This document shows positions 4,401-61,113 of a stretch of DNA of 64,000 nt, one piece after another. Numbering within the stretch: position 1 is the stretch's first letter; each line of letters begins with the position of its first letter. Below the pieces are notes generated by a model, which was not told the origin of the DNA, made no database searches, and saw only the letters and a program-made list of their open reading frames with translations. The position numbers were made by a program, and so were the translations under genes. The DNA comes from Deltaproteobacteria bacterium (lineage in GTDB: Bacteria > Desulfobacterota > Binatia > HRBIN30), in assembly GCA_016200585.1 (NCBI GenBank), contig JACQEN010000195.1, forward strand, positions 3,939 to 67,938, in the 5' to 3' direction.

Positions 4401-6267
4401 TCGACACCTTTCCGGTGCCGTACGGGACCATCTGACCTTGCGTCGGATCGAGCGTGAAGAGCGTGATGCTCGTTCCAGGCGGCGAATTGAGCGAGTTCGG
4501 AAAGGTCACCGCAACCGGCTGGCTGGCGCTGGCGTTTGCCGGCTGGAAGGCCACGATGAACACGAGCAACTTGCTGCCACTCTGTGCCTGCGGTGAGAAT
4601 TCCTCGGGCAGACGATCGACCGGAACCTGCACCGCCGTAAGCGGAAATGGATCCGGTTGCGTGCCGTCTTGCAGGCTGAGGACGGTTCCCGCGTAGACTG
4701 TGAGGGAGAGGGAAGGGATCGTCTTGAAGGTGAAGGTTTGATCGATAGGGAAGTTCTGCTTCACCATCACCGTTTCCTGCCCTTCGATGCGCGGCAGGTG
4801 CACCAATACCGGCGACACGACCACTTGGTGCGGGACGATTTCGTAGACCAGATCGACGCCGGCGTGTTGGCCGGGTGGTGAGGTTGCGGTTGTACCGTCG
4901 TATCGGATGAGCTGCGGCCCGGCGCATTCGTCCGGAAGATTCGTAAACGCGAAGTTGCCGGCCGCATCGGAAACCGTTTGATAACCGACACAATCGGTGG
5001 CATGGCCATTCGGTGCCATTCCAAGGAAACGAATGGTGACACCCGCCAGCGGCGTTTCCATTGTGTCACCTTCGACGGTACGTCCGAGGAACGATGTCGT
5101 GACCGGTTGGACCGACAGCATCGCCACGGCCGACCGGGTCGTCATTGTGCCGAGGACACTGGCGGAAGCCGACACGGTGAAGTGCACGTTGCCCGTGGCC
5201 TGGCCGGCTGCGGCGGTAATCTTGACGATTGCAGTTTGACCGGCGGTCACTTGCGCCGGCGTGATGGTAGCGGTCAAGTCCGCCGGCAGATCCAGTACTT
5301 GAAGGCTTGCCAGCCGTGAAAAGCCGTCGCTGCTGATGAGCTTCACAGCATAGGCAGTCGACTGACCTTGAAGAACGGTGGCGTTCGCAGGAACCAAGCT
5401 GACTGAGAACGTCGACGGCGTCAGGACGCTAAACGAGCTCGACGAGACGAGATTCCCGGCGGGGGCGTTGATGGTAATGGGTCCGCTGGTGGCCCCGCTT
5501 GGAACGGTTGTCGTAATTTGATTTGGCGCGACAACCCGAAACGTTGTTGCCACTCCGTTGAACGATACTCCGGTGACCGCCGAAAAACCGGCGCCCGAGA
5601 TAGTTACTGTGGTGCCGGTCGGCCCACTCATTGGCGAGAACAGGCTCAGGATCGGAGGGCAGCTGCAGTTCTGGAGGCACTTCCCGGCACAGGCCGAGTC
5701 GGCGGGGGGATCGCATTCCTCGGGGCTGGTGAGAACCCCGTCGCCGCACCTGGCGGCGGCGGGTGTCGTCGGTGTCGGCACATTCGTCATTGTCGGCGAT
5801 ACGCTGCGCGTCAGCGTCGGCGTTGGCGTCGTGGATCGAGTGGGTGTCAGCGTCGACGTGGGCTTTGGTGTGGGCGAGACGGTTGCGCTGGCCGTCGCTG
5901 TTGCCGTACTCACGCTTGGGCAGGCGTTGAGCGCAAATCCGACGGCCTGAATGATTTCATCGATGGTAACGTCGCCGTCGCCATTCGCGTCCCCCGCCAG
6001 ACACGCGGCGACCGGAGTATTGCCGAGGGCGATGTTTACCATCGTGATCAGCTCATCGATGGCGACCTCCCCGTCTGTCGGGTTGCAGTCGCCGGTGCAA
6101 ACGGCCGCGGAGGGTGCCGGCGTGAACAGCAGTGAGAGGGTCAGTGTGGCGGTGGCTAGGATCCCGAGCGCCTGGCGCAAACAGGTCGCACGTCTGCTGG
6201 CTCCAAGACACTTTCCGCCCGACCCGATCACCGATATTGCCCCCTTCGAAACAGGTAGGGCGCTCAC
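970..6267 (-). CDS. Giant secreted RHS/YD-repeat polymorphic-toxin protein (1765 aa)
   Basis: ORF track. There are many YD repeats (e.g. YDANGNLVSLVDALGHQTAYEYDNSNRL, YSYDAAGNRV). The RHS core ends FTGREYDETGLYFNRTRFYSPTLGRFISEDRVGFLGGGANLYGYALNNPVNLTDPSGQ. The N-terminal leader is LGILATATLTLSLLFTPAPSAA. Following it are a dockerin-like module, a PT linker, a Cys-rich repeat (RCGDGVLTSPEECD), an IPT/TIG-like segment (PILSLFSPMSGPTGTTVTISGAGF) and a carboxypeptidase-regulatory-like segment (AGVTIRFLG..SDAAGNFAFTNLP). Confidence 0.93.
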   Translation of the reverse strand: MSALPVSKGAISVIGSGGKCLGASRRATCLRQALGILATATLTLSLLFTPAPSAAVCTGDCNPTDGEVAIDELITMVNIALGNTPVAACLAGDANGDGDVTIDEIIQAVGFALNACPSVSTATATASATVSPTPKPTSTLTPTRSTTPTPTLTRSVSPTMTNVPTPTTPAAARCGDGVLTSPEECDPPADSACAGKCLQNCSCPPILSLFSPMSGPTGTTVTISGAGFSAVTGVSFNGVATTFRVVAPNQITTTVPSGATSGPITINAPAGNLVSSSSFSVLTPSTFSVSLVPANATVLQGQSTAYAVKLISSDGFSRLASLQVLDLPADLTATITPAQVTAGQTAIVKITAAAGQATGNVHFTVSASASVLGTMTTRSAVAMLSVQPVTTSFLGRTVEGDTMETPLAGVTIRFLGMAPNGHATDCVGYQTVSDAAGNFAFTNLPDECAGPQLIRYDGTTATSPPGQHAGVDLVYEIVPHQVVVSPVLVHLPRIEGQETVMVKQNFPIDQTFTFKTIPSLSLTVYAGTVLSLQDGTQPDPFPLTAVQVPVDRLPEEFSPQAQSGSKLLVFIVAFQPANASASQPVAVTFPNSLNSPPGTSITLFTLDPTQGQMVPYGTGKVSNDGTQILPDADSAHPGHKYGLTHFDWHGPTAPPPNGINPSPDPNGPKTCNPVDLSSGLEVITATDLAINDRRGPIGIKRSYGSGSNNAGPFGIGTSHNYGFQLNIVVPFTPAQGVVGLVMPDGNQFPLNQQGDGTYTNSTVPLLRGAVLSVGGGGTFSLRWKDGTVFGFQTFGRLTGLVSITDANGNVVSLVHGSDATQITQVVDPSGRALTLSYDNANRITSIVDPIGRKVQYSYYSQGTLKTVTDPAGGVSTYTYDTQNRLTQVVDPRGITTEQNTYDQNGRVRQQTLADGTLNFEYTLLNPAAAAVSPILQTKLTDPRGNTTVYHFNPQGFLIDATDALGQTQVFEREPGTNQLMAIHGTASCNVCGAGPGDVTFTRDAFGNVMTRTDALGATTSFTYDPIFNKVTSITDPLGHVSTLAYDARGNLQTVADPGGATTTFAYDATGLLTSVTDALGNVRQFGYDGLGNLTSIVDPLGNASTLTYDAVARVTTATDARGRSTQIAYDNLDRIREMVDAANGKTQFSYDANGNLVSLVDALGHQTAYEYDNSNRLRKRTDALGATESFEYDKSSNLVRRVDRKGQQSTFTADALNRLIQANFADGSSTSFVYDARSQLVQAGDSAGGVIHRSYDLVNRLVEEASPSGVVDYAYDLAGRRTTMIASGQPSVQYSYDTNSRVTSIAQGNQLVGFEYDLLGRRRMLMLPNGISAEYAYDTASQLTQLAYRNGNSMLGDLRYSYDAAGNRVGIDGSFARTSLPDPVAAASTKYDDANRQRQFGDHMMDFDANGNLTSIRDSASETALTWDARDRLVGFASRTVQASFVYDALGRRLQKTINGTTTQFAYDGIDISETIRNGLSVGILQGTATDEPLVRGGSEYYVADALGSTLGLADRTGVVQEQYTFGPFGETQVSPSVSDNALAFTGREYDETGLYFNRTRFYSPTLGRFISEDRVGFLGGGANLYGYALNNPVNLTDPSGQNPLLIVAGIGAIAGAISEGYDAYKCGHRFDAAFAQAVLRGAVAGAASAVVSVAVAVFSKSPTLSGAAGGLSYDVTANLLGGHKTVQDILIDTAAGAALGGFKVAETATEVVGASVPVGGNNFNPLTSPRTWGVKAKELYVQQIIGSAIDIGRPLYVHAVTGEQ
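5752..5919 (-). repeat. Thr/Pro/Ser-rich linker within the RHS protein
   Basis: Residues 117-172: PSVSTATATASATVSPTPKPTSTLTPTRSTTPTPTLTRSVSPTMTNVPTPTTPA. Confidence 0.8.
5920..6099 (-). other. Dockerin-like double Ca-binding-loop module (RHS protein)
   Basis: CTGDCNPTDGEVAIDELITMVNIALGNTPVAACLAGDANGDGDVTIDEIIQAVGFALNACP. It has two D-x-[DN]-x-D-G..[IV]D[ED][LI]I segments framed by four Cys, directly after the signal peptide. Confidence 0.6.
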
Positions 6268-10918: not shown

Positions 10919-12712
10919 TCAGTCCGCTGTCTTGATTGCCTTGACCGTGGTTTGTCCCGTCGCCGGCACGAGGGTGACGAGGATGATGCTGTCGGGCGGT
11001 GCTTGAATGTCCAGCTGTGCCGAGTGGTTTGCGACCGTCAGACTTGAAGCGCTGGTGGCAATGGCAGCGGAGTCGATCGGCTGGATGGCTGTGGTGCAAT
11101 CGACGCGTTGTTGCACGACCCGATAAGCGCCGTTGCCGAGGCCATCGAGGTCGAGTGTGGCACTGACGGCACGGCTGCCGTCGCAGTAGGGCGGCGCGGC
11201 CACAGCCGGATCGTAGGCGACGAAGTTGTAGAGCAGGATCGTCGCCCGCTGTGTGCTGCTGTCGATTGCGGCGACGAGATTCTGACCGTAGCGCGTTTGC
11301 GACGTCTGGTCGCGCTGTTGTGAATCGCTGTCCAAAAGCTCCACGGCGACGCGTGTCGCGGCCATCTCATGCCACAGCTTGGCGCTGAAGAACGCCGGGC
11401 GTACCTGGCCGTCGTTGGTGAACCAACCCCAGTTGCCGCCGGCGCCGTTACCAGCCGGAGCAGTATCCCACGTGAAGAAGCGTGCGGCGCGATCCAGTCG
11501 CGAATCCTGCATCGCATGCAAAGCCGCCGTGCTGCAGGCCGCAGCGTAGGCGGTGTCCATGCGCCCATCGTAAAAGGCGTTGACGTTCCACTCGTCGATC
11601 CACAGGAGCGGATGCAAATCAGCGCGCTGCGACAGGTAAGGCGCGATCCAATGGCGCACCGCTTCGGTGTCTTCGGCATAGGTGCCGGCGTGGAGCAGCG
11701 GGTCGGGCTGCTGGCCAAACGGGTTGTTGGCGTAGCGGTGCCACGAGATGAAGTCGACGCGCAGCGCCGGGTTCTTCACGGCGACGTTGAGCAGCGCGGT
11801 GACCCAGGATTGGTGCGGGACGAAGCTCGCCGGACCGCCCAGGTGCAAGGTTCCGGAAGGCAGGGCGAGCTGCTGCTCGGCTCGCAGCAACCGATCGTTG
11901 CAGACGCTGTAGAGGTCGAGATAGTTGCGCAAGGAGCCGGCGAAGAAGAAGCCGTCGGGTTCGTTCCACACTTCGAAATCGGTGACCCCGTAGCGGCTGT
12001 AGGTGTGAACGATCATGGCTTCGACGAGGTCGCCGTACTTTGTGCTGTCGGCCGGTGGACAGTGTTGCGCGCCGGTGCCGTTGCCGTTGGTCGCGGCGCA
12101 CGCCGGGGCGACCAACGCCAGCGGCGTATAGTCGATGATCAATTGCGGTGTGGCCCCGGCCGACTGTGCCAACGCCAATCGCTCATCGAGGCGGCAGTGA
12201 TTGAACGTGTTGGAAGCCGAGTCGTAGAGCGGACCGTGGACGCTGCCATCGGGGCAATCGTTGTCTTCGAAGCCGACGTCGATGCGCATGCGCAGCGGGC
12301 CGATCGCAGCGCGCACGAGCTGGTTCACTTGGGGCAGGGGAGAAGGCGTGTCGCTGCCGACGAGCTCCTGGTTGATGGGCTCGCGTGTCTGGTCGAAGCG
12401 TACACGGGCATGCAACGCCAGCACGTCGACGGGGCAGCTGCCGAGAGCGTTGCCGACGGCGCGGATGATTTCGTCGATGCGGATCATCCCATCGCCGTCG
12501 GCGTCGCCAGCCGCACAAGATGAAATTGCGGCCTGGCCCAGGGCGATGCGTACCATGGTGATGAGATCGTCGACGGCGACCGACCCGTGTCCGCCACAGT
12601 CGCCGACGCAGGAAGTGGACGATGCTGCCGAATACGTTGCCGGCACGAGCAACAACGCCGACGCCGTCGTCAACATGATGAAGCGAACGCCAAGGTACGA
12701 GTGCCGCAACAT
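10919..12712 (-). CDS. Secreted clan GH-A glycoside hydrolase (GH39-like) with an N-terminal dockerin-like module
   Basis: ORF track 10919..12748. The likely start is MLRHSYLG..LLLVPATYSAASS, which forms the signal peptide. The candidate acid/base motif is FEVWNEPDGFFF, with FISWHRY and the candidate nucleophile LLWIDEWN. The GH family assignment is by motif only. Confidence 0.7.
   Translation of the reverse strand: MLRHSYLGVRFIMLTTASALLLVPATYSAASSTSCVGDCGGHGSVAVDDLITMVRIALGQAAISSCAAGDADGDGMIRIDEIIRAVGNALGSCPVDVLALHARVRFDQTREPINQELVGSDTPSPLPQVNQLVRAAIGPLRMRIDVGFEDNDCPDGSVHGPLYDSASNTFNHCRLDERLALAQSAGATPQLIIDYTPLALVAPACAATNGNGTGAQHCPPADSTKYGDLVEAMIVHTYSRYGVTDFEVWNEPDGFFFAGSLRNYLDLYSVCNDRLLRAEQQLALPSGTLHLGGPASFVPHQSWVTALLNVAVKNPALRVDFISWHRYANNPFGQQPDPLLHAGTYAEDTEAVRHWIAPYLSQRADLHPLLWIDEWNVNAFYDGRMDTAYAAACSTAALHAMQDSRLDRAARFFTWDTAPAGNGAGGNWGWFTNDGQVRPAFFSAKLWHEMAATRVAVELLDSDSQQRDQTSQTRYGQNLVAAIDSSTQRATILLYNFVAYDPAVAAPPYCDGSRAVSATLDLDGLGNGAYRVVQQRVDCTTAIQPIDSAAIATSASSLTVANHSAQLDIQAPPDSIILVTLVPATGQTTVKAIKTAD
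12431..12610 (-). other. Dockerin-like double Ca-binding-loop module (glycoside hydrolase)
   Basis: CVGDCGGHGSVAVDDLITMVRIALGQAAISSCAAGDADGDGMIRIDEIIRAVGNALGSCP. It aligns residue-for-residue with the RHS module, including all four Cys. Confidence 0.6.
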
Positions 12713-17090: not shown

Positions 17091-17382
17091 GTACTTCAAA
17101 CTATCATGATCAAATGAAGCCTCAAGGCCTGTTGGTGGCGTTATGAATGCGCCTGTCTTGTCCCGCACCACATAACACGCGGGTTCTGTCAGTCGTTCAC
17201 AACCCGAGGCGGACGTCCTCCCGCGAGCCCTCGGTTCCTTGGGTGCCGGGTATTCGGTTGTCGCTGTGCCACGCCGCTTGCATCATGATCCGCGTCACGC
17301 GGATTCCTGATCCAGATTCTCCGCAGCCTTCCGACCGTCCGGTAGGTAGACGGTGCGATCGCCAAATTCGTGCACTCTCGGT

Positions 17383-17391
17383 GGGAAGGAG
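17383..17391 (+). promoter_or_regulatory. Shine-Dalgarno (gggaaggag) for the molybdoenzyme beta subunit
   Basis: Lies 7 nt upstream of ATG 17399. Confidence 0.6.
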
Positions 17392-17398
17392 CAACGAC

Positions 17399-18436
17399 AT
17401 GGGAACGGTGGTGCCTTCAAAACGCCAACTGGCTTGGGCGTTTGATCTGAACAAGTGCATCGGTTGTCAAACTTGCTCCGTCGCTTGCAAGGTGCTGTGG
17501 CCGGGTGACGATCCGGGCACGGAGCAGATGTGGTGGATGACCGTCAACACCCAACCGGGGCGTGGTACGCCGCGCGACTGGGAGTCGATGGGTGGTGGCT
17601 ACGACGCCGACGACAAGCTGCAGCTCGGGCGCATCGCCACGGAAGAAGAAATCGGCGGCGGCTGGAACTTCAATTACGATGAAGTTCTGCACAGCGGCCG
17701 CGGCCGGGATGTGCACCTGGAAAAAGTCTCCGGCAGCAAGAGCTGGGGAATGAACTGGGATGAGGACGAAGGCGCCGGTTCGTTTCCCAACGCCTATTTT
17801 TTCTACCTGCCGCGCCTGTGCAACCACTGCACGCAACCCGCCTGCCTCGAAGCGTGTCCCAACGACGCGATCTTCAAACACGCCGATACCGGCCTGGTGC
17901 TGCGCGACGAGGAAAAATGCAAGGGCGCGCAAATGTGCCGCCGCGCTTGCCCGTACAAGAAGATCTACTTCAACAAGATGCGCAACGTCAGCCAACACTG
18001 CATCGGCTGCTTTCCGCGCATCGAGCAGGGCGTCGCACCGGCGTGCGTCCGCCAGTGTCCTGGACGTGCGGCGTTCGTCGGGTTCCTCGACGACGCTGGC
18101 AGCATCGTTCACAAGCTCGTCAGCAAGTGGAAGGTGGCGTTGCCGCTGCACCCGGAGTTCGGTACTCACCCCAACGTCTACTACGTGCCGCCTCTGTCGC
18201 CGGCGCCGCTGCACGAGGACGGCAGCTTCAACGCGGCGGGGCAGCGCATACCGCCCGACTATCTCGAGAAGCTCTTCGGGAGCGATGTCCATGGCGCGTT
18301 GGACGTCCTGCGCTCCGAGCTCGACAAGAAGCGGCGTGGGCAGGACTCCGACGTGATGGACGCACTCATTCTGTACCGCTGGAAGGACGCGCTCGGTCAC
18401 CTGACTCGCGACCCAGCCGAGATCGTGTGGAAGTGA
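17399..18436 (+). CDS. Four-cluster Fe-S (beta) subunit of a type-II DMSO-reductase-family molybdoenzyme (NarH/EbdB/DdhB/SerB-like)
   Basis: ORF track 17147..18436. The real start is MGTVVPSKRQLAWAFDLNKCIGCQTCSVACKVLW at 17399. Cys groups are CIGCQTCSVAC, CNHCTQPACLEACP, CKGAQMCRRACPY and CIGCFPRIEQGVAPACVRQCP. At about 345 aa it matches the short (non-NarH) beta subunits. Confidence 0.85.
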   Translation: MGTVVPSKRQLAWAFDLNKCIGCQTCSVACKVLWPGDDPGTEQMWWMTVNTQPGRGTPRDWESMGGGYDADDKLQLGRIATEEEIGGGWNFNYDEVLHSGRGRDVHLEKVSGSKSWGMNWDEDEGAGSFPNAYFFYLPRLCNHCTQPACLEACPNDAIFKHADTGLVLRDEEKCKGAQMCRRACPYKKIYFNKMRNVSQHCIGCFPRIEQGVAPACVRQCPGRAAFVGFLDDAGSIVHKLVSKWKVALPLHPEFGTHPNVYYVPPLSPAPLHEDGSFNAAGQRIPPDYLEKLFGSDVHGALDVLRSELDKKRRGQDSDVMDALILYRWKDALGHLTRDPAEIVWK

Positions 18437-18440
18437 GCCG

Positions 18441-18446
18441 AGGAGG
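18441..18446 (+). promoter_or_regulatory. Shine-Dalgarno (aggagg) for the molybdoenzyme alpha subunit
   Basis: Lies 7 nt upstream of ATG 18454 and just after the beta-subunit stop at 18436. Confidence 0.7.
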
Positions 18447-18453
18447 AATCGCC

Positions 18454-23284: not shown

Positions 23285-24265
23285 TCAACACGTCGCCCCC
23301 GACCATTGCGCTTGCGGAACGAGCTCGACCGCGACGCGCCATAGCGCTTCCATGTCACCGCGAGTGAGCAGCGCCGCGTCCTCGAGGGCGTAGGGCCGAT
23401 CGAGACGATGATACTTGGGGCGCCCGAGGTTGGTGTAGGCCAGCAGATCCCAGCGTTGTACGCTCGGCAAACAATTGCGGATGAAGTCGGCGATGGCGCG
23501 GATGTTGTCTGCATTGGCCGTGTAGCCGGGGACGAGCGGCGTACGAATCCACAGCGGCGTACCGTGCTCGGCCAGCAAACGAGCATTGTCGAGGATCAAT
23601 TCGTTGGACACGCCGGTGGCGGCTTTGCTTGCGGCTGCGTCCATGACCTTGAGGTCGTAGAGCACCAGGTCGATCCACGGCAGCACGCGACGCAAACGGT
23701 CGCTGGCGACGGCGCCGCAGGTGTCGAGGGCCACCTGCAGACCGGCGGCTTTGCACAGCGGCAGGACCTCACTCAGAAAGTCGATTTGCGTGAGAGGTTC
23801 GCCGCCGCTGAAGGTGACGCCCCCTCCCGAGGTTTCGTAGAACACTTGATCCTTGAGCAACTCGTCGAGCAGCTCTTCGGCTGTCCACTGCTTGCCGATG
23901 AGCTCGAACGCTGCCGAGGGGCAAGCACGAACGCATTTGCCGCACAGGGTGCAGCGAGCGCGGTCGATCTGCATGCCGCTCTGCGACAACGCCAGCGCCT
24001 GTTCCGGGCAGATGGAGAGACACTCGCGGGCCGCAATACAGCGCACGTCGTACCACATCAGATCGGGGGCAACGCGCATGCCCTCGGGATTGTGACACCA
24101 GGCGCAGCGCAACGGACAGCCTTTGAGGAATACCGTGGTCCGAATGCCCGGGCCGTCTTCGGTGCTGAACTGTTGGATATTGAAAGTGGTGCCGGTGACG
24201 CTGAGGTTGCGGAGCAGCGGCGCGCTTGCAGCCGCGGTTGCTGCGGCGGTTGAACTAGAGTCCAT
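23285..24265 (-). CDS. Glycyl-radical enzyme activating enzyme (radical SAM, with a ferredoxin-like two-cluster insert)
   Basis: The radical-SAM motif is GCPLRCAWCHNPEG, preceded by FSTEDGPGIRTTVFLKG. Extra clusters are CIAARECLSICP and CTLCGKCVRACP. The start MDSSST is at 24265 and overlaps the GRE stop by 11 nt; the longer ORF-track start is an extension into the GRE. Confidence 0.9.
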   Translation of the reverse strand: MDSSSTAAATAAASAPLLRNLSVTGTTFNIQQFSTEDGPGIRTTVFLKGCPLRCAWCHNPEGMRVAPDLMWYDVRCIAARECLSICPEQALALSQSGMQIDRARCTLCGKCVRACPSAAFELIGKQWTAEELLDELLKDQVFYETSGGGVTFSGGEPLTQIDFLSEVLPLCKAAGLQVALDTCGAVASDRLRRVLPWIDLVLYDLKVMDAAASKAATGVSNELILDNARLLAEHGTPLWIRTPLVPGYTANADNIRAIADFIRNCLPSVQRWDLLAYTNLGRPKYHRLDRPYALEDAALLTRGDMEALWRVAVELVPQAQWSGATC

Positions 24266-26693: not shown

Positions 26694-26987
26694 CGATTTA
26701 ACCCAGGTGCAAATTGAGAGCCGTCGCCGCGGTTCAAAGAGTCTGAGAAACTTCTTGAAGGAATTTCCGGATCGTGGGAGAGGCGGAAGCTTGCGAAACA
26801 TGAGTCTGTTCGCGCACTCTGGGATTCGTAGATTGGGTCGACAGCAAATTTCTCCAACTTCTCCGATGGTCAGAGTTGTTAGTTTCGTGTTCAGGCGAGT
26901 CCGTAGCGAGCAGCGCCGGTCGATTCACCAATATCCATTTGCGACCTGGCGTCGTGACGTGAAATAGTTTTGCTCGAGGACGAATCG

Positions 26988-42000: not shown

Positions 42001-42251
42001 ACACGGTGACGCACGCGCTGACCACGGTATCCCTCGGCACCGGTAGTGCTCCGTTCGGCGTTTCGGTGAATCCGGAAGGCACCTTGCTCTACGTTGCCAA
42101 CTCGAATCGAGGGAACGTGTCGGTGATCGACGCTTTGACGAACGCAGTCGTGCGCACGATTGCGGTTCAGTCGATGCCGACTGCGTTTGGCCAGTTCATT
42201 GAACCCGCAGCGGCCCAGTCGGGCGGTACGGGTTCGCTCATTGTGCCGTAA
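39093..42251 (+). CDS. Giant lipoprotein: lipobox, Ig-like region, about 440-aa acidic Thr/Pro stalk, C-terminal YVTN-type beta-propeller
   Basis: The signal and lipobox are [23 protein letters not shown] starts at 39093/39096 follow aggagg. Propeller repeats are [71 protein letters not shown] and [17 protein letters not shown]. The C-terminal end is MPTAFGQFI. Confidence 0.8.
39984..41313 (+). repeat. About 443-aa acidic Thr/Pro/Glu/Asp low-complexity stalk (degenerate [ED]TPT / TATPT units)
   Basis: e.g. [54 protein letters not shown]...[52 protein letters not shown]. The DNA is dominated by acg/acc-ccg-acN-gaN codon strings. Confidence 0.9.
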
Positions 42252-49162: not shown

Positions 49163-49207
49163 GACAACAGCGCGGCGAATTACGTCGGCGTACGCAGCCG
49201 ACTTTGC

Positions 49208-53002: not shown

Positions 53003-53084
53003 GGAAGGTTCCGGCTGGCGGCGAAAACTTGCGTCGGTAATTTTCTGCGGTTTTTCCGGTCGGGAATTGAGCGAGGAACCTGGA

Positions 53085-53113
53085 TTGCAATTGCGCACCT
53101 GCCGGCGCATACA
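53085..53113 (+). promoter_or_regulatory. Candidate sigma70-type promoter, TTGCAA-N17-CATACA (weak -10)
   Basis: Read directly, about 50 nt upstream of the first stalk gene. The -10 matches only 3 of 6 positions, so confidence is low. Confidence 0.2.
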
Positions 53114-53162
53114 CGGTCGCGCGGTGTGTCGAGAAGGCGCAACGCACGGAGCCGTGGGCGTT

Positions 53163-55451
53163 GTGACAGCGAAAAGAGTAGGAATGGTACTCAGCATTGC
53201 GCTCGGCGCGGTGCTCACTCTGACCGGGGCAGGGTTGGCGTTGCAAGGCGATGCCGACTGCAACGGCACGGTCGATAGCAGCGATATCGCGGCCACGGTT
53301 GTGGCAATCTTCGAGGGATCGAGTTGTGCCGGTGGCGATGCCAACCTCGATGGTGCGCTGACGGCTGCCGATGTGAGCGCTGCGATTCGGATGGTCGGTT
53401 CGTCGCGGGCCACTGCTACGCCGACCGAGACGCCAACAGACACTCCACGCACCGAAGAGTCGCCAAGTCCGAGTGTCTCAGAAACTCCAGGTCCGTCGAC
53501 GACCGCCTCGGCGACTCCGAGCAGCAGCGCCACTGGCACCAAGGATTCAACCCAAACGCTGACCGCCACTGCGTCGCGTACGCCGACGATCGTTCCGACG
53601 ATCACTGCAACCGCTTCGAGCTCGGCCACGGCAAGTTCGACGCCCACCCTGGTGTCGTCCGCGACGCCGACGCAGTCGCCAAGTCCTTCTCCAACCGAGA
53701 GTCCGACGGATACCCCTAGTGCAACGGAATCGATACCGCCATCTGCTTCGCCAACCACTACCGCCACAGTGCCACCGACACAGAGTTCGACGGCAACTGT
53801 TTCGCCGAGTTTCACGCCGACCATTACCGTTACGTTTACGGCGAGCCGGACCGCGACGGTCACGAGAACCCTGACTTCGTCGCTGACCCCCACCGTTACC
53901 GGAACGCCTTCGTATACGATACCGCCGACGCGTACTCGCACGGAGACGCCGACGAAATCACCGACGCGTACGTGGAGCGCGACAACCACGGCGACAGGCA
54001 CGGCCACGCAGAGCCCGACCGAAACGGGGACTGCGACACGAACCGGAACGGCGACTCAAACACCGACGCGGACCGGCACTCCGACCAAAACGGCGACCCC
54101 GACGATGACGGTGACGCGCACGGCGACAGGCTCGCCAACGGAGACGGCAACCAGCACCCAGACGTCAACGCGCACGCCAACGGCAACCGAGACACCGTCA
54201 AGCACGCCGACCGTGACGACAACACCCAGTCCGACGCGGACGGTGACGGCGAGTCGGACGCCAACGTCGACTGCGACGTCGCCCGGATCTCCCACGGCGA
54301 CCGGTACACGTACGCCTACTTCGACTGGGACAGCAAGTGCCTCCCCGACGGCATCCTCAACCGCCACCCGTTCGTATACTCCGTCGCCGACTTTCACCGG
54401 CACGGCGACGGTTCCGGCGACGCGCACCGCCACCTTGACACGGTCGCCAACGCTGACTGGGACGCCGACGCGCACGGCAACGGCAAGCTCGACGCTGCAG
54501 CCGACGCTGACCGCGACGGTGACGCAAACCCCGACCGGAAGCCGCACTCCAACGGGTACTCAGACCGCCACGCCGTCACGGACAGCGACGCGCACGCCGA
54601 CGTCATCGCCCACGCTCAGCGCGACGCCAAGCTTTACGGGAACAGGAACCCGCACCCCGACGCGGACGGCGACCTTGACGGCGACCGCAACGGCAACGTT
54701 CACAACAACGCCGAGTGCTACGCTGACGCGAACCCCGACGCCGACGCCGACGCCGACACCCTCGCCGACGAAGACCGCCACACGTACCGCGACCGCTACG
54801 GCAACGGCGACGCAACCGGCGATTGGGCCGCACGTGCTGACGCTAGCGGTTGTCACCAGTTTCGATGGCTGCGTGTTCTGTTGTGAACAGAGTTGCGCGC
54901 GTACTCCTACACCAACTCCGGCCTTCGACGGACTGGGGCGGCGAATTTTCACGACGGCGAGCGGGCAGTTCGTACTCGTCGTTGAAGGTGTGGCGGGGGC
55001 TAGCGCGCGGGCGCCCGGGACGTCGCTGCAGCCGTCCTCATCCGACAACCGCCCCGATCTGTGGATCGAGAGTACCAGACCGTTGGGAAATGGCAGCACG
55101 CAAGTTTGCGATACGGGGCCGCCCTCTGCCGGTGGTGGCGGAGTTCCCGCCGTCAGCCCGCCGAGCTTTTCGTCGGGCATCCAGAGCGTTACCGACGCGC
55201 TCAACGATTTTGCCTGCCGCTTCGACCCGTCGGTCGGCGCGGCTGCTCCGTGTACGGTTTTGGATTCCACACGCGAGCCGCGGTTGATCAACTCGTCTGC
55301 TAGCGTGCAATTCTGTGACTTCGTGGCAACCACGGCGACGTTCCCGCTGGGTGACAGTGTGGTCTCGGTGGCGCTGAGAGACGTTGCCGGCAATATCGGT
55401 CCGACAGCGCAGGTGGTGGTGCACGTTGTGACGCCGACGCCCAAGCCGTGA
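53163..55451 (+). CDS. Secreted 'dockerin-like anchor / about 470-aa Thr-Pro stalk / Cys-rich head' protein, paralog A
   Basis: ORF track 53067..55451. The likely start is GTG 53163 (MTAKRVGMVLSIALGAVLTLTGAGLALQ) or ATG 53184. See the module, stalk and head sub-features. Confidence 0.8.
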   Translation: MTAKRVGMVLSIALGAVLTLTGAGLALQGDADCNGTVDSSDIAATVVAIFEGSSCAGGDANLDGALTAADVSAAIRMVGSSRATATPTETPTDTPRTEESPSPSVSETPGPSTTASATPSSSATGTKDSTQTLTATASRTPTIVPTITATASSSATASSTPTLVSSATPTQSPSPSPTESPTDTPSATESIPPSASPTTTATVPPTQSSTATVSPSFTPTITVTFTASRTATVTRTLTSSLTPTVTGTPSYTIPPTRTRTETPTKSPTRTWSATTTATGTATQSPTETGTATRTGTATQTPTRTGTPTKTATPTMTVTRTATGSPTETATSTQTSTRTPTATETPSSTPTVTTTPSPTRTVTASRTPTSTATSPGSPTATGTRTPTSTGTASASPTASSTATRSYTPSPTFTGTATVPATRTATLTRSPTLTGTPTRTATASSTLQPTLTATVTQTPTGSRTPTGTQTATPSRTATRTPTSSPTLSATPSFTGTGTRTPTRTATLTATATATFTTTPSATLTRTPTPTPTPTPSPTKTATRTATATATATQPAIGPHVLTLAVVTSFDGCVFCCEQSCARTPTPTPAFDGLGRRIFTTASGQFVLVVEGVAGASARAPGTSLQPSSSDNRPDLWIESTRPLGNGSTQVCDTGPPSAGGGGVPAVSPPSFSSGIQSVTDALNDFACRFDPSVGAAAPCTVLDSTREPRLINSSASVQFCDFVATTATFPLGDSVVSVALRDVAGNIGPTAQVVVHVVTPTPKP
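53247..53396 (+). other. Dockerin-like module (paralog A)
   Basis: GDADCNGTVDSSDIAATVVAIFEGSSCAGGDANLDGALTAADVSAAIRMV. Confidence 0.55.
53409..54817 (+). repeat. About 470-aa Thr/Pro/Ser/Ala/Arg low-complexity stalk (paralog A)
   Basis: e.g. [84 protein letters not shown]. Confidence 0.9.
54818..55448 (+). other. Conserved Cys-rich C-terminal head domain (paralog A), unrecognised family
   Basis: AIGPHVLTLAVVTSFDGCVFCCEQSC..GRRIFTTASGQFVLVVEG..RPDLWIESTRPLGNGSTQVCDTGPPSAGGGGVPAVSPPSFS..TDALNDFACRFDP..PCTVLDSTREPRL..QFCDF..FPLGDSVVSVALRDVAGNIGPTAQVVVHV. Confidence 0.7.
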
Positions 55452-58054
55452 ATCGCTCGCCTTTCAGACTCCTGACGGTCGGGATCGCACTGACGGCATT
55501 GCTGGCATCGGCTTGTCGCGCTCAGGCGGCGATTTCCGCGGATCTCAACTGCGATGGTGTAGTGGACAGCGCCGACCTAGCTGTTGCGGTTGCTGCGCTA
55601 TTTGAACCCACGGTAGGCGGTTGTGTCTCCACCGACGTCAACCTTGATGAGCGCCTCAGTGCGGCCGACGTGATATCGTTGATCCGTTCCGCATCTTTTC
55701 TTGCGCCAACTGCGACCGCCACGGATCTACCGTCGCCGACGTTGAGCCTGACTCCATCCCCCGAGGCGACTCGTACATCCGAGCCCACCGATAGCCCGAC
55801 GCCGAGTGTCACGATCTCCCCGACACCCTCGCCACTGCCGAGCTTGTCCCCGTCGGCCACCGTGACCTTCACGGCATCGTTGACCAAGCCGGCGACTCGT
55901 TCACCCACCTCAACGAGAACCTCGGCCGAGGTCCTCGCCAGTCCAACATTCACCGCCGAAGAGATCCCGTCCTCACCTTCGGTGACGCCGTCGGAGGTCG
56001 GCGGCACGGCTACTCCGTCGACCGAGCCCAGTGCCGAAACCACGTCGACCCCTTCGCCGACGGGTACGGAGTCGCCGAGTGCGACCGCCGTGGAAACGGA
56101 AACCGCGACGGCGACACCTTCCCTTTCGCCGCCCCCGACTGCAACCGCAACGGTGACCTCGAGCTGGTCGGCGACCCCGGCGCCAACCGATACGGCTACG
56201 CCGACGCCGTCCATGACCCTGAGCCCGACAATGAGCCCGACAATGAGTCCGACTGCGTCGACCTCCGCGACGCCTTCCCCGATTTTGTCTCCGACACCGT
56301 CGGGCACACCTTCGCGCACGCCATCCAAAACCAGGTCAATGACTCCTACGTCGAGTTTCACGCACACGCCGTCTGCGACGCCGACAACGTCCGCGACTCG
56401 GACATCGACGGCGACCAGCAGTCCGACGGTGACACGAACCCCGACCGAGACCCCGACGTCTACGCTCACGGCGACGCCGACAAGCACGGAAACGCCGTCG
56501 CCAACGTACAGTCCGACACGCACGGCCTCTCCCTCGCGCACACCGACTTCGAGTGCTTCGCCGAGCCACACCCCACTGCCGACGATGACTCCGACCCCGA
56601 GCTCGACCGAAACCGGCACTCGAACCGCGACGCGGACGCCAACCGCGAGCCTGACGCCGACGAGCACGATCACTCGCACCCCGACGCGCACGCCGCTGCC
56701 GAGCTTCACGCCGACGCCGACGGCCACACCGACATGGAGCCCCAGTCCGACCGTTACACCTACAGGGACGCGGTTGCCAAGTCGAACCCCGAGCCCGAGC
56801 CCGACGGGAACCGCGAGCGTCACTCCCACGGCGACGGTGACGGCTACTTCGACGCCGACTCCCTCCGCTACTTCCACACCCACGGTGTCGCCGACTCCAA
56901 CAAACACGCCAACGTTCACGGCCACGCCGACAATCACGGCGACGGCCACGCTGACTGCGACGCCGACCGTAACCCCGACGATTACGATTACGCCAACGGC
57001 GACTCCAACATCGACGGTGACCGCTACGGATTCGCCGACGGCGACCGCGACGGAAACTCCAACGCTGACTCCGTCGCCGACGGAAACCGCTACAGCGACG
57101 CAGACCCCCTCGAGAACAGGTACGTCAACCGCAACGGGATCGCCGACAAGAACGCCGACGCGAACGGCGACGGCCACCTTCACGCCGACGCTGACGCCAA
57201 CGAACACCGCCTCGTTTACCCCTACGGCTACTCGGACGCCGACTCGAACTGGCACGCCGACTCCGACCGGGACGTCCACACCCACGGCGACGACGACATT
57301 CACCCCGACCATCACGCCCACTCCGACCGGTACCCGGAGCGCCACCCCGACTCCTAGTGTGACGCCCAGCGCAACAGCGTCGTCGACGCCGACCGCCTCG
57401 GCGACGACGACGCCAACCGGACAGGGACCGCAAGTTACGTTCTTGGGCGTGCTGACTCGTTTCGACGGATGCGCGTTTTGTTGCGAGGCGAGTTGTGTCA
57501 ACGCGCCAACGCCGATCCCGGAATACGATGCTGAAGGTAGGCGCGTTTACTACGCGTTGTCGGGGCAATTCGTGGTCGTGGTGGAAGCGCGCCCAGGCCT
57601 CAGCGGTGCGGCGGTGGCGACATCACTGCAAGCGGTCCCGCCGGACTACCGACCGGACATTTGGATCGAGAGCTCGCGCGATCTGGGCAACGGCAGTGCG
57701 AAGGTTTGTGATACCGGACCGGCGAATTCGGGCGGTGGCGGCGTGCCCGGAGTCGATCCACCGAATTTCTCCCTCGACCTGCCCGCCGTGACGAATGCCT
57801 TGGTTGATTTCGGCTGCCGCTTCAATCCAGGTATCAGCGCCGCCAGTCCCTGCACCATCGTTGACGCCACCCGTGAGCCGCGGCTGCTTACGGCCGCGAC
57901 GGCTCAATTCTGTGACTTCGTTTCCAGCACGAGCACCTTCCCAAGCGGAGAATCCGTTCTGACGGTCGCCTTGCGCGATACGGTGGGAAATATCGGACCC
58001 ACGGCGCAGATCGTTGTGCGCGTCGCCACACCGACAGCCACACCGACACCCTGA
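55448..58054 (+). CDS. Secreted 'dockerin-like anchor / about 570-aa Thr-Pro stalk / Cys-rich head' protein, paralog B
   Basis: The GTG start overlaps the paralog A stop (GTGA, 55448..55451). The signal is MNRSPFRLLTVGIALTALLASACRAQA. Whether it is cut by SPase I or is a non-canonical lipobox is unclear. Confidence 0.8.
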   Translation: MNRSPFRLLTVGIALTALLASACRAQAAISADLNCDGVVDSADLAVAVAALFEPTVGGCVSTDVNLDERLSAADVISLIRSASFLAPTATATDLPSPTLSLTPSPEATRTSEPTDSPTPSVTISPTPSPLPSLSPSATVTFTASLTKPATRSPTSTRTSAEVLASPTFTAEEIPSSPSVTPSEVGGTATPSTEPSAETTSTPSPTGTESPSATAVETETATATPSLSPPPTATATVTSSWSATPAPTDTATPTPSMTLSPTMSPTMSPTASTSATPSPILSPTPSGTPSRTPSKTRSMTPTSSFTHTPSATPTTSATRTSTATSSPTVTRTPTETPTSTLTATPTSTETPSPTYSPTRTASPSRTPTSSASPSHTPLPTMTPTPSSTETGTRTATRTPTASLTPTSTITRTPTRTPLPSFTPTPTATPTWSPSPTVTPTGTRLPSRTPSPSPTGTASVTPTATVTATSTPTPSATSTPTVSPTPTNTPTFTATPTITATATLTATPTVTPTITITPTATPTSTVTATDSPTATATETPTLTPSPTETATATQTPSRTGTSTATGSPTRTPTRTATATFTPTLTPTNTASFTPTATRTPTRTGTPTPTGTSTPTATTTFTPTITPTPTGTRSATPTPSVTPSATASSTPTASATTTPTGQGPQVTFLGVLTRFDGCAFCCEASCVNAPTPIPEYDAEGRRVYYALSGQFVVVVEARPGLSGAAVATSLQAVPPDYRPDIWIESSRDLGNGSAKVCDTGPANSGGGGVPGVDPPNFSLDLPAVTNALVDFGCRFNPGISAASPCTIVDATREPRLLTAATAQFCDFVSSTSTFPSGESVLTVALRDTVGNIGPTAQIVVRVATPTATPTP
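55538..55690 (+). other. Dockerin-like module (paralog B)
   Basis: ADLNCDGVVDSADLAVAVAALFEPTVGGCVSTDVNLDERLSAADVISLIRS. Confidence 0.55.
55705..57417 (+). repeat. About 570-aa Thr/Pro/Ser low-complexity stalk (paralog B)
   Basis: e.g. TPSATPTTSATRTSTATSSPTVTRTPTETPTSTLTATPTSTETPSPTYSPTRTASPSRTPTSSASPSHTPLPTMTPTPSSTETGTRTATRTPTASLTPTSTITRTPTRTP. Confidence 0.9.
57418..58051 (+). other. Conserved Cys-rich C-terminal head domain (paralog B)
   Basis: GQGPQVTFLGVLTRFDGCAFCCEASC..GRRVYYALSGQFVVVVEA..RPDIWIESSRDLGNGSAKVCDTGPANSGGGGVPGVDPPNFS..TNALVDFGCRFNP..PCTIVDATREPRL..QFCDF..FPSGESVLTVALRDTVGNIGPTAQIVVRV. Confidence 0.7.
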
Positions 58055-58185
58055 ACCTTCCATCAACGATTGCGAAAATCGCGGCTAAAATTGCAAATTC
58101 TGGTTGTTGCAAACAGAAGAACCGGCAGGCATTGAAGGACGCGATCTCAACGCACCACAATCGCAGTCAGGTCCAAACCTATCGC

Positions 58186-61113
58186 ATGAGCTGCCGCCTA
58201 CGATCGCTGAGGATGCTCTATCTCTCGTTCGCCGTATTGGTGGTGTGCGCACTAGCGCGAGGCGGCTTCGCGCAACCGCTTCCCGGCGATGCCAACTGCG
58301 ATGGCTCGATCGATGTGGCGGACGCTGAAGCGGCGGCTCTGGCGATCTTTGAAGGATCAAACTGTGGGGCAAGCGACGCCAACGCAGATGGGAGTGCGAG
58401 TGCCGCGGATGTCGTTGCCGTGTTGCGATTGTTCGTATCGGCGCCAACTCCTACATCGACACTCGCGCTGCCGACGGCATCGGAAAGTCCAATTTCGAGC
58501 TCGACGCCGACGCTCCCGCCACCGTCACCCACGGCGACCCTACAGATTGATCCAATCGAATCGCCGTCAAGCACCATGACGCCAACGATCGTCCCCTCGG
58601 ACACGCCCACGGCGACTCCCGTGGTCACAACCGTGGTACCGAGAACCAGCACGCCGTCCTCAAGCCCGGGGTTGACCGAGACGAAGCCGCCAACTGCTTT
58701 GCCGTCTGCGACCACGACCGCGACAGCCGATTCGACCCCAATCTCGACGCCGGAAACAACCGCGAGCGCAACATCGACGGTGCCAATTCCGACAGCAACT
58801 GCAGACGAGACTCCGACGACCGAGGGGTCGGCAACCAGCACGCCGACGGTCGCGTCGCCGTCGGCAACCGAAACGCCGTTCCCCTCGCCAACACTAGCCG
58901 AATCGGCGTCGCCTTCGGTAACGTCCAGTGAGACCTCGACGCCGACGGGCACCGAGAGTCAGCGCCCGACCGCGACAAGCTCTCCGACAGCGAGCGCGCC
59001 AACCCGAACGACATCGGTTACGCGGGCGGCAACGCTGACCGCTACGGCGACGGTGACGCCATCCGAGAGTGCCAGTCCGACGCTGAGCCGCACCTCGACG
59101 AACACCGCTACTCCGACTCGATCACCCTCACCGAGCTTCACCCTGCCGCCACCGCGAACGATGACGCCGACGCGTTCTCCCAGTGCGACTGCCACCGAGA
59201 GCCCATCGCCGACTGAGTCGCCATCGGCAACAGAAACATCGACGGGGACGCCGACTCCCTCGCCGACACCGAGCCGCTCGCCGACTCATACGACAACGGA
59301 ATCCCCCACGGCGACGGAGACCACGACGGGGACGCCGACACTGACTTGGACGATTCTTCCAAGTGTGTCGCCCACGAGAACCCTGACGGCGACGCAATCT
59401 TCGACTCCTGCGCCGTCGGGAACGTCCACGCCTTCGTCTACCGCGACGACGAGCAGCACCCGAACTGCCAGTGCCACGCGCACGGGGACCTTGCCACCGA
59501 GCGCGACGCCGACCAGAACTTCGACGAACACGTCGACGAGCACGCCGACCTCGACGTCAACGCGGACGATACCCCCGACACGCAGCGCCACTCCCAGCCG
59601 CACGCCAACGGAAACCGCCACTGCGAGCGCGACACGGACGCAGTCCTCGACGCCCACGCAGACCGCCTTAGCGACGGATACGGCAAGTGCGACGCCGACA
59701 CGCACGCCAACCGGCACGCCTACCGATAGGCCGAGTGCGACGTGGACGCCGACCAGCTCTGCGACTCGTACGCCGACTGATTCACCCAGCTCTACACCGT
59801 CTCGGAGCCCGACGATCTCGCCGACCGCGTCGCCTACGTTGCAACCGTCCTCGACGACAACATCCAGCCTTACGCCAACCGACACGGCGACGGAAACCCC
59901 TTCACGCAGTCCGTCTGCGACGGCGACGGCGACTTCCTCGCCGTCGCAAACGAGCACCCAAACGCCGAAGCCGACGGCGACACCTTCGAGATCACCCACG
60001 GTGACACCAACCGAGACGTGGACCCGAACTCCCTCGGTTACTCCCAGTGAGACGCCCACGGGCACCAGTACCGCGACGCAGACAGCGACGCGAACGCCGA
60101 CAGCAAGCTCCTCGCAAACTTCAACGAGGACAGCGACGCTGACGCCGACGGAGACGGCGACGCCAACCGATACGCCGACTTGGACTCCTACTCGCACGCC
60201 GACGGCGACGCCGACCTATACTTCGACGCGAACAGCGACACTGACGCCGTCGCCGTCGGCGACGCCTACGGATGTCCCGACGCAGACGCCGACGCGTACA
60301 CCTACGTCGACGCCCACCGAAACTCCGACGCGTACCGCGGCGGCGACAGGGACGCCGACGCGGACACCCACGGAAACGCCGTCACCGACTTCGACGGCAA
60401 GTCCAACGCTGTCGCGGACGGCGACGTTTACGCCGAATGCGACGCCGACCCGTACACCCACCTCTTCGGCGATTGGTCCTCAGGTCGCCTTCTTTGGCAT
60501 CGTTCCCGCGGATGGATGTTATGCATGCAACGATCCCGGTTGCTTGTGCGGAACAACGCCGACTCCGACGCCGATGCTCGATGGCAATGGGAGGCCGGTG
60601 TTCCTCACCGCCAATGCCGGCGGTTTTTTGCTCGTGCTCGAGGCACGACCGGGTACGAATGGCGCTTCGGTGGGCACATCGGTTCCGCCACCAACACCAG
60701 GGCAAGGTGTGCGTCCAGATCTGCAGATCCAAGCATCGAGCGCCCTGGGAAACGGAAGCGCTACGATTTGTGACACGCAGCGCATCGTCGATGGCGGTGG
60801 CGGCGTTCCTGGGTTCGATCCACCGGATTTCAGTTCGTTGTCTTCGATTACCGATGCGTTGATCGATTTCGCATGCCGTTTTGATCCGCACTCGCCGTCG
60901 GTGCCGTGTACTCTCTCTGGTGATGGCAATGACGGTACAATTACAGCGAATCTTCCGATTGGTTCCGAACAGTTTTGCTACCGCACAGAGATCAACACGG
61001 CCTTCCCGTACGGCGACACTGTCTTGACGGCGCAGGTGCGTGATTCGAGTGCGGCGCACAACATCGGACCCACTGCGCAGATCGTTATCCGTCGTGTAAC
61101 GCCGCATCCATAG
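58186..61113 (+). CDS. Secreted 'dockerin-like anchor / about 675-aa Thr-Pro-Ser stalk / Cys-rich head' protein, paralog C
   Basis: ORF track 58132..61113. ATG 58186 gives MSCRLRSLRMLYLSFAVLVVCALARGGFAQP. Confidence 0.8.
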   Translation: MSCRLRSLRMLYLSFAVLVVCALARGGFAQPLPGDANCDGSIDVADAEAAALAIFEGSNCGASDANADGSASAADVVAVLRLFVSAPTPTSTLALPTASESPISSSTPTLPPPSPTATLQIDPIESPSSTMTPTIVPSDTPTATPVVTTVVPRTSTPSSSPGLTETKPPTALPSATTTATADSTPISTPETTASATSTVPIPTATADETPTTEGSATSTPTVASPSATETPFPSPTLAESASPSVTSSETSTPTGTESQRPTATSSPTASAPTRTTSVTRAATLTATATVTPSESASPTLSRTSTNTATPTRSPSPSFTLPPPRTMTPTRSPSATATESPSPTESPSATETSTGTPTPSPTPSRSPTHTTTESPTATETTTGTPTLTWTILPSVSPTRTLTATQSSTPAPSGTSTPSSTATTSSTRTASATRTGTLPPSATPTRTSTNTSTSTPTSTSTRTIPPTRSATPSRTPTETATASATRTQSSTPTQTALATDTASATPTRTPTGTPTDRPSATWTPTSSATRTPTDSPSSTPSRSPTISPTASPTLQPSSTTTSSLTPTDTATETPSRSPSATATATSSPSQTSTQTPKPTATPSRSPTVTPTETWTRTPSVTPSETPTGTSTATQTATRTPTASSSQTSTRTATLTPTETATPTDTPTWTPTRTPTATPTYTSTRTATLTPSPSATPTDVPTQTPTRTPTSTPTETPTRTAAATGTPTRTPTETPSPTSTASPTLSRTATFTPNATPTRTPTSSAIGPQVAFFGIVPADGCYACNDPGCLCGTTPTPTPMLDGNGRPVFLTANAGGFLLVLEARPGTNGASVGTSVPPPTPGQGVRPDLQIQASSALGNGSATICDTQRIVDGGGGVPGFDPPDFSSLSSITDALIDFACRFDPHSPSVPCTLSGDGNDGTITANLPIGSEQFCYRTEINTAFPYGDTVLTAQVRDSSAAHNIGPTAQIVIRRVTPHP
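58286..58434 (+). other. Dockerin-like module (paralog C)
   Basis: GDANCDGSIDVADAEAAALAIFEGSNCGASDANADGSASAADVVAVLRLF. Confidence 0.55.
58438..60462 (+). repeat. About 675-aa Thr/Pro/Ser low-complexity stalk (paralog C)
   Basis: e.g. SPSPTESPSATETSTGTPTPSPTPSRSPTHTTTESPTATETTTGTPTLTW...TRTPTATPTYTSTRTATLTPSPSATPTDVPTQTPTRTPTSTPTETPTRTAAATGTPTRTPTETPSPTSTASPT. Confidence 0.9.
60463..61110 (+). other. Conserved Cys-rich C-terminal head domain (paralog C, most divergent)
   Basis: AIGPQVAFFGIVPADGCYACNDPGCLC..GRPVFLTANAGGFLLVLEA..RPDLQIQASSALGNGSATICDT..DGGGGVPGFDPPDFS..TDALIDFACRFDP..PCTLSGDG..EQFCYR..FPYGDTVLTAQVRDSSAAHNIGPTAQIVIRRV. Confidence 0.7.

Follow-up and report, generated by a model that had tools for sequence, protein, structure and literature searches.

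Cohesin-dockerin systems outside the cellulosome were reportedly the subject of a survey by Peer et al. in 2009. 'Scaffoldin-containing' non-cellulolytic microbes have been described, with an N-terminal Doc1 on the scaffoldin, as have non-cellulosomal cohesin-dockerin pairs, N-terminal dockerins and cohesin-dockerin adaptors (PMC11557425). As pairs, N-terminal dockerins and adaptors are already on record, the principle of such docking is known. Dockerin and cohesin are also counted among the trafficking domains of polymorphic toxins, and PT-TG toxins with cohesin or dockerin domains are documented (PMC13483458). Our literature searches found no paper connecting Binatia or Binatota with dockerins. 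Here we analyse a stretch of 64,000 nucleotides (the window) from contig JACQEN010000195.1 of a Binatia-like bacterium, in which six predicted secreted proteins carry a small dockerin-like module immediately behind the signal peptide. We consider it probable that these six proteins are Sec-exported cargo of a non-cellulosomal, probably disulfide-stapled cohesin-dockerin docking system.

The window is chromosomal DNA of 61-65% G+C. Two Candidatus Binatia genomes share its block of abhydrolase, PNPOx and stalk genes in synteny, with flanking proteins 63-71% identical, and the organism therefore most likely belongs to Binatia. Translation of six open reading frames (ORFs) reveals a signal-peptide-like N-terminus, composed of basic residues, a hydrophobic core and a small-residue cleavage motif, and then a two-loop module of 52-62 amino acids (aa) that begins 0-8 residues past the predicted cleavage site. 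The original prediction had located six modules directly at the mature N-terminus; translation places all of them within a few bases of where they had been put, and confirms that position in all six proteins. The proteins and their modules are listed below (PT, Pro/Thr).

970..6267, minus strand: Rhs/YD-repeat toxin protein, ORF of 1765 aa with a probable start near 6207
5917..6102, minus strand: RHS module, four-Cys 'CxGDC' subtype, aa 56-117, sequence VCTGDCNPTDGEVAIDELITMVNIALGNTPVAACLAGDANGDGDVTIDEIIQAVGFALNACP
10919..12712, minus strand: GH39-like glycosidase, 597 aa from Met (MBI3784621.1, HY270_14600; Pfam Glyco_hydro_39 1.1e-16)
12431..12613, minus strand: GH module, four-Cys subtype, aa 46-106 of the TTG ORF, with loop 1 degenerate (DCGGHGSVAVDD) and loop 2 canonical (DADGDGMIRIDE)
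36256..38982, plus strand: PPC-repeat protein, start taken as the Met at 36256 (Pfam PPC 8.5e-15 and Dockerin_1)
36334..36516, plus strand: PPC module, type-I-like dockerin with two framing Cys, ICLGDVDGNNRINVAD...DANADGSATVAD...GEPC
53163..55451, plus strand: stalk protein 1, with dockerin 53244..53399, a PT-rich stalk of ~480 aa and a Cys-rich head of ~200 aa at 54840..55448
55448..58054, plus strand: stalk protein 2, with dockerin 55535..55696, a stalk of ~585 aa and head 57452..58051
58186..61113, plus strand: stalk protein 3, with dockerin 58282..58437, a stalk of ~680 aa and head 60481..61110

Three results together show that the six modules did not arise by chance. A hidden Markov model (HMM) built from them and run over the six-frame translation of the window returned exactly these six (E 1e-20 to 1e-27; next match E 0.77). 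An HMM built from unrelated database proteins only recovered the RHS module at 3.3e-34 and the GH module at 1.7e-31. Finally, a strict loop motif has five occurrences in the window, all of them within modules, and none in 50 shuffles. It had been claimed that every module holds two loops of the strict D-x-[DN] type; the strict motif matches only 5 of the 12 loops, and it is a relaxed EF-loop pattern that covers 11 of them. One extra residue is inserted in loop 1 of the RHS module, and in the GH module the ligands of loop 1 are missing at positions 3 and 5.

Nor do all six proteins carry the same module, as the original prediction had it. We distinguish three subtypes: identity is 57% between the RHS and GH modules, 39-49% among the stalk modules and 18-34% between groups. 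The RHS/GH subtype has four Cys and the consensus xCxGDCNGDGxVTVNELITMVNIALGNAxVSxCLAGDANGDGxITVDEIIxAVNxALNGC. In the stalk modules the two Cys are internal, one inside loop 1 and one before loop 2, so that the Cys framing described for all six applies to the RHS, GH and PPC modules and not to these. The three stalk proteins are tandem paralogues whose C-terminal heads are 46-61% identical, which reduces the supposed six unrelated proteins to four cargo types. Together, the modules represent several subtypes of a single fold, distributed over four cargo types. The presence of two or three dockerin subtypes, which in known systems goes with different partners, speaks against a single general tag.

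The Rhs protein starts with a signal-peptide-like segment (6103..6207, ending SAA), followed by the dockerin-like module, a PT linker of ~50 aa, Cys-rich repeats, IPT/TIG, DUF6531, the RHS shell, the Rhs-associated core and a C-terminus of ~160 aa. Pfam detects RHS_repeat (1.5e-94), TIG and DUF6531; NCBIfam detects YD_repeat_2x (1.9e-73) and Rhs_assc_core (7.4e-23, residues 1527-1602). Judged by its domains, 970..6267 has the layout of an Rhs polymorphic toxin, namely an RHS/YD shell, a Rhs-associated core and a C-terminal domain, and the claim that one module sits on a toxin is upheld in this sense. The last ~160 residues, after the core (970..1500, minus strand), matched no toxin family in Pfam or NCBIfam. 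On the 3' side of the gene lies a partial ORF (3..929, minus strand) with an RHS repeat and a weak PPC match. In the GH39-like glycosidase, which is identical to the family protein P0089, the module follows the signal peptide directly and there is no PT linker. The PPC-repeat protein is ordered as signal peptide, dockerin, PT linker and PPC domains. The stalks of the three stalk proteins consist of Pro, Thr, Ser and Ala, and the GTG start of stalk protein 2 overlaps the stop of stalk protein 1 by 4 nt.

We compared the modules, scored in isolation, with Pfam. The gathering threshold of Dockerin_1 (PF00404) is 22.9 bits; the PPC module (29.8) and that of stalk protein 2 (25.4) exceed it, and those of stalk protein 3 (21.9) and stalk protein 1 (18.1) fall below. 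The RHS and GH modules gave no Dockerin_1 match in Pfam, only single-loop EF-hand matches below threshold, which in the RHS module lies on loop 2. NCBIfam has no model for the module. The RHS module was then modelled with AlphaFold (AF2), giving a predicted local distance difference test score (pLDDT) of 93.3, with coil at residues 1-14 and helices at 15-25 and 47-59. A Foldseek search of the PDB with this model returned dockerins as the best 20 matches (TM-score 0.58-0.66, probability up to 0.99, E 0.07-2), and the first EF-hand protein at rank 21 with a TM-score of 0.33. There is no space for an entering helix before loop 1, which indicates an F-hand pair, the dockerin layout, rather than an EF-hand pair. 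As modelled, two tandem 12-residue Ca loops, each with its helix, in ~60 aa and with no entering helix reproduce the dockerin layout, and the RHS subtype is predicted to adopt the dockerin three-dimensional fold. An EF-hand pair fits poorly, given the single-loop matches below the Pfam threshold, the missing entering helix and the Foldseek rank of 21. The dockerin-like character that had been proposed is thus borne out by Dockerin_1 on four modules and by AF2 and Foldseek for the RHS type; in the profile searches every one of the six gave a Dockerin_1 or an EF-hand match, four of them Dockerin_1 and two of these above threshold.

The same comparison bears on a different explanation, in which the module is an autonomous Ca-binding, disulfide-stapled cap, that is, an EF-hand-like element for stability, folding or Ca sensing that has no docking partner. 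The RHS and GH modules match only EF-hand models in Pfam, and their loops carry Glu at position 12, like EF-hands. The profile of the four-Cys subtype finds EF-hand proteins, Entamoeba CaBP and calmodulin, as its best PDB sequences (1e-6 to 1e-3), with a dockerin at 3e-3, and among 144 relatives of this subtype Pfam matches EF-hand_1 in 84 and Dockerin_1 in 28 at E<=1e-3. However, the predicted structure matches dockerins and lacks the entering helix. Furthermore, long flexible linkers separate module from cargo, so that the module would be unable to stabilise the cargo fold, and it is attached to either end of unrelated cargo and found alongside cohesins. We therefore regard the autonomous cap as quite unlikely, and return to the module as a dockerin.

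An exhaustive profile search over 1.84 billion cluster representatives shows how large the four-Cys RHS/GH subtype family is: 11,108 representatives pass E<=1e-3 and 6,674 pass E<=1e-10. Word-indexed homologue searches yielded 9 proteins for the 66 aa module and 8 for the cohesin profile described below. A scan of species-representative genomes found the module mostly in Candidatus Binatia metagenome-assembled genomes (MAGs), often at seven or more loci per genome, with further hits in Myxococcales, Terriglobales, Phycisphaerae and Margulisiibacteriota MAGs. According to Pfam, the cargo of 144 members consists mostly of beta-propellers, beta-helices, PMP repeats and unknowns. In these 144 otherwise unrelated proteins, conservation reaches 90% or more at the four Cys and on both helix faces. 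This conservation fits a shared binding surface, and the four Cys would be expected to form two disulfides.

The position of the module varies within the family. Of 156 top representatives, 71 carry it solely at the C-terminus and 49 within the first 70 residues, about two dozen of the latter as a clear signal peptide plus module; the rest of the 156 are internal or multi-copy, with up to five matched stretches per protein. Among 68 module-bearing ORFs from reference genomes, 31 have it C-terminally, at least 15 directly after the signal peptide and the rest internally. The N-terminal position, which had been taken as the hallmark of the module, is a recurrent design and not a defining one. 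These counts also bear on a further alternative, namely that the module is a cleaved propeptide or secretion-sorting tag that directs export or inhibits the cargo and is removed upon secretion. All six modules in the window follow the signal peptide directly, usually with a protease-accessible PT linker behind them, as such an element would. Yet a module that is more often C-terminal than N-terminal, sometimes internal and sometimes repeated argues against a propeptide or an N-terminal sorting signal. Likewise, the predicted module is well folded with a highly conserved surface, and homologues of the stalk heads exchange it for a lipid anchor rather than for another export signal. A propeptide or sorting tag is thus highly improbable, and the sorting half of the earlier proposal of 'tethering or sorting' is given up.

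If the module is a dockerin, a cohesin would be expected as its partner. None was recognised in the 64 kb window, either by Pfam (PF00963 on 36 ORFs) or by an iterated cohesin-like HMM over all six frames (best E 0.26), and on this point the original prediction was correct. The conclusion it had suggested, that the system has no cohesins, is not supported, since the family itself and Binatia genomes contain divergent cohesins, most of them below the Pfam threshold. Clustering of the non-module parts of family proteins revealed a repeated domain of ~150 aa, and its HMM finds the domain in 18 of 147 top family proteins, always alongside a four-Cys dockerin. When the profile of this domain (A5) was compared with PDB sequences, the 14 best matches were all cohesins; these include 5n5p_A (1.8e-9), 6kgc_A (full-length, 7.6e-6), 3ul4_A, 4uyp_A, 1g1k_A, 2vn5_A and 2xdh_A. 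On these profile matches we assign the A5 domain as a divergent cohesin with a Cys-rich insertion. Pfam Cohesin itself matches 4 of 144 family proteins; P0131 scores 7e-13 and P0147 25.9 bits, and P0098, P0152, P0012, L032 and P0020 reach 15-18.5 bits, under threshold, and NCBIfam has no model for the A5 domain. Two groups of small family proteins, around P0048 and P0057, had been considered as cohesin carriers and were rejected: Pfam finds no cohesin in them, and the actual carriers form the P0011/P0098/P0131 cluster.

The cohesin-like domain is found in several arrangements. P0064 and P0068 are small proteins made of signal peptide, dockerin and cohesin, and the Binatia ORFs L005 and L032 each contain cargo, cohesin and dockerin. 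In a Terriglobales MAG (locus L035, DASPMH010000449.1, 1899..3392), a gene encodes a signal peptide, two Cys-insert cohesins, a PT linker and the tail 'DDDDGC...AWILLIPALGLFALRRGRN', and it adjoins two genes whose products end in a four-Cys dockerin. The tail comprises Cys, a hydrophobic stretch and RRGRN; it matches no NCBIfam model, and by eye it looks like a Cys-containing C-terminal sorting signal, which would make the product a putative anchoring scaffoldin. A third case from Binatia, besides L005 and L032, stands beside the stalk genes of Candidatus Binatia GCA_026004215.1 (locus L059, 5254..5871, minus strand): a small secreted single-cohesin-like protein (hhalign probability 89.7%, E 1.8e-6), whose gene is oriented divergently to them. 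The window lacks the minus-strand gene block that holds it; there, a gap of 64 bp separates PNPOx from stalk gene 1. Cohesin homologues fused or adjacent to the four-Cys module are the classic signature of cohesin-dockerin systems.

Such genes also weigh on the possibility that the dockerin fold serves a non-cohesin partner, such as another dockerin, an S-layer or outer-membrane protein or a polysaccharide, and that the cohesins of relatives serve some subtypes only. The window without a cohesin agrees with this view, as do the strong differences between the three subtypes; for the stalk and PPC subtypes, the sole nearby candidate is one weakly scoring cohesin-like gene in another genome, and strongly conserved helix faces would suit any conserved partner. 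Against it, many proteins and Binatia loci combine this same four-Cys module with a cohesin homologue, as a fusion or as a neighbour, and we judge a non-cohesin partner unlikely. Two paralogous secreted Cys-rich proteins of ~415-430 aa are encoded just behind the stalk genes (61258..62547 and about 62565..63812, plus strand); as conserved partners they were rejected, having no homologue in the syntenic Binatia loci and no Pfam match.

A functional clue in favour of docking comes from the stalk heads. The head domain belongs to a family of at least 160 proteins. Among its full-length members, an N-terminal stalk-type dockerin is present in the three window proteins, in two proteins each at the Binatia loci L059 and L061, and in P0271, which has a short linker only. 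In contrast, the head-domain homologues P0273, P0280 and P0282 carry a lipoprotein signal instead (LAAC, LVGC and LSGC). The replacement of the dockerin by a lipoprotein signal in proteins with this head suggests that the dockerin serves as an anchor, and makes plausible the tethering half of what had been proposed. The window itself holds a protein of comparable design that bears no dockerin:

39093..42251, plus strand: lipoprotein with an LLSGC lipobox, an Ig-like region, a PT/E/D stalk of ~600 aa and a C-terminal YNCE-like beta-propeller (Pfam YNCE 1.3e-13)

Taken with the head homologues, this lipoprotein indicates that the dockerin sits where the membrane anchor sits in an anchor-stalk-head design. 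In the stalk orthologues at L059 and L061, loop 1 of the module has decayed, and loop 2 and the Cys pair are kept, a pattern which suggests that one binding face is enough.

The head itself, ~200 aa, has conserved Cys, a GGGGVP motif and a C-terminal NIGPTAQIV strand. The AF2 model of the stalk protein 2 head (pLDDT 93.7) has no convincing match in the PDB or BFVD (TM-score < 0.35), and its profile has no Pfam or PDB sequence match. The head may represent a new adhesin-like fold. That it is a hidden cohesin, with which the stalk proteins would self-assemble into polymers, was considered and rejected, for neither the model (no cohesin or other real PDB or viral match) nor the profile points to one.

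The long PT-stalk genes are mis-annotated in public records. Over 53067..61113, NCBI records annotate only C-terminal heads (HY270_14755, 192 aa, in stalk protein 1, and HY270_14770, 231 aa), and in the two Binatia genomes gene callers place minus-strand ORFs across the stalks (L059 6080..10825; L061 6170..10798). We considered whether the long PT ORFs are spurious, as G+C at third codon positions (GC3) is high in another frame. This is an artefact of ACN, CCN, TCN and GCN codons, and P0271 and two other genomes preserve the architecture. The surface proteins of this organism have very long PT stalks as a general trait; a PT linker is also present in the C-terminal part of 29191..31128.

We propose the following course of events. 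The proteins would be exported by Sec, after which the dockerin would fold oxidatively and load Ca. It would be kept on the mature protein, its two Ca loops each followed by a helix and probably stapled by disulfides. It would then dock, in a Ca-dependent manner, on divergent cohesins of other secreted or surface-anchored proteins, whose genes we infer to lie elsewhere in the genome. The two or three dockerin subtypes would probably bind different cohesins. Docking would tether the Rhs toxin, the GH39-like glycosidase, the PPC-repeat protein and the three stalk proteins to the cell surface or to each other. Bacillus subtilis WapA is an Rhs/YD protein with N-terminal wall-binding repeats, and the Rhs protein would be a surface-held toxin comparable to this wall-anchored protein. 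The stalk proteins would hold their heads out on a Pro/Thr stalk of 480-680 aa, with the dockerin in the position of a lipid anchor.

Several observations weigh against this model. The RHS and GH modules lie under every Pfam threshold, and at sequence level their best matches are EF-hand proteins. The structure model covers one subtype only, that of RHS, and its Foldseek E-values are weak, which we ascribe to the small query of 63 residues. Loop 1 is degenerate in the GH module and in the stalk orthologues at L059 and L061. The 64 kb window contains no cohesin found by our searches. Lastly, in a diderm cell the Sec-exported proteins would still have to reach the surface.

Elsewhere in the window, two observations concern metabolic genes. 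At 17147..21222 (plus strand), the ORFs of a 4Fe-4S dicluster protein and of a molybdopterin oxidoreductase (1134 aa) overlap in different frames at 17818..18436, both with coding-like GC3; the true start of the oxidoreductase probably lies farther downstream, or else there is a frameshift. At 23285..26801 (minus strand), a glycyl-radical enzyme (PFL-like plus Gly_radical) is encoded with a radical-SAM activase, which suggests anaerobic metabolic capacity of this Binatia-like MAG.

Four aspects appear to be new: the four-Cys dockerin and Cys-insert cohesin, mostly missed by standard models; the expansion of the four-Cys subtype in Binatia; cargo that includes an Rhs toxin and stalked heads whose fold is unmatched; and the interchange of dockerin and lipobox in front of one and the same head domain. 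More tentatively, we can imagine that Binatia and some neighbouring uncultured lineages possess a large, undescribed network of disulfide-stapled cohesins and dockerins that Pfam and NCBIfam mostly miss. Such a network might display Rhs toxins, enzymes and stalked new-fold heads at the surface, with N-terminal dockerins that are interchangeable with lipoprotein anchors and with dockerin-cohesin adaptors that allow daisy-chaining. If the docking explanation is true, cohesin-dockerin assembly would be a general means of surface display in Binatia, which are abundant and uncultured in soil and groundwater, and not only in Firmicute cellulosomes, and this display would carry interbacterial toxins and adhesin-like heads. 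Our analysis provides two profiles, for the four-Cys dockerin and for the Cys-insert cohesin; as domain libraries mostly miss both, systems of this kind are under-annotated. The swap of lipobox for dockerin is a concrete functional clue that can be tested, and the dockerin-cohesin pair could serve protein engineering as a new orthogonal, disulfide-stabilised docking pair.

Compared with type I cellulosomal dockerins (PF00404; PDB 1ohz_B, 2ccl_B, 2vn5, 6kgf_B and 4uyq_B), the modules are alike in their size of ~60 aa, in the duplicated Ca loop plus helix and in the predicted fold, and also in the PT-rich linkers to the cargo and in the presence of cohesin homologues in the same lineage. In cellulosomes the dockerin is usually found at the C-terminus, whereas those of the window occupy the mature N-terminus. 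They further differ in their conserved Cys (four in RHS/GH), which suggest disulfide staples, in the Glu at loop position 12 and the scores below the Pfam threshold of the RHS/GH subtype, and in the host, an uncultured, presumably diderm Binatia-like bacterium and not a Firmicute. A cellulosome is also a poor description of the locus, in which one of six cargos is a glycosidase and the window contains no scaffoldin or carbohydrate-binding module. With EF-hand pairs such as calmodulin and Entamoeba CaBP, the best sequence-profile matches of the four-Cys subtype, the modules share the canonical DxNxDG...E loops; unlike these pairs, they lack entering helices, are predicted to fold differently and occur in an extracytoplasmic, Cys-rich context.

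Lipoprotein-anchored stalk proteins, namely 39093..42251, P0273, P0280 and P0282, follow the same plan of anchor, PT stalk and C-terminal head, and the homologues share the head domain. Their anchor is a lipidated Cys, whereas that of the dockerin proteins would be a protein-protein docking module. Polymorphic toxins are similar to the Rhs protein in having an Rhs shell and a C-terminal toxin behind an N-terminal module that determines the place in which the toxin is retained; they anchor by wall-binding repeats, PAAR or VgrG, in place of the dockerin seen here. There is also a likeness in cargo to non-cellulosomal cohesin-dockerin systems, such as the toxin-glycosidase complexes of Clostridium perfringens NagH/NagJ (PDB 2ozn) and the cohesin of Archaeoglobus fulgidus (PDB 2xdh), where the cargo is likewise non-cellulolytic and includes toxins. 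Both structures are among our own matches, 2ozn_B by Foldseek with the RHS model and 2xdh_A with the A5 profile, and single-cohesin adaptors that combine a cohesin with a dockerin are common to those systems and to this one. In contrast to the other non-cellulosomal systems, whose modules Pfam recognises, the commonest subtype described here and its cohesins mostly escape Pfam and NCBIfam, and the cohesin carries a Cys-rich insertion.

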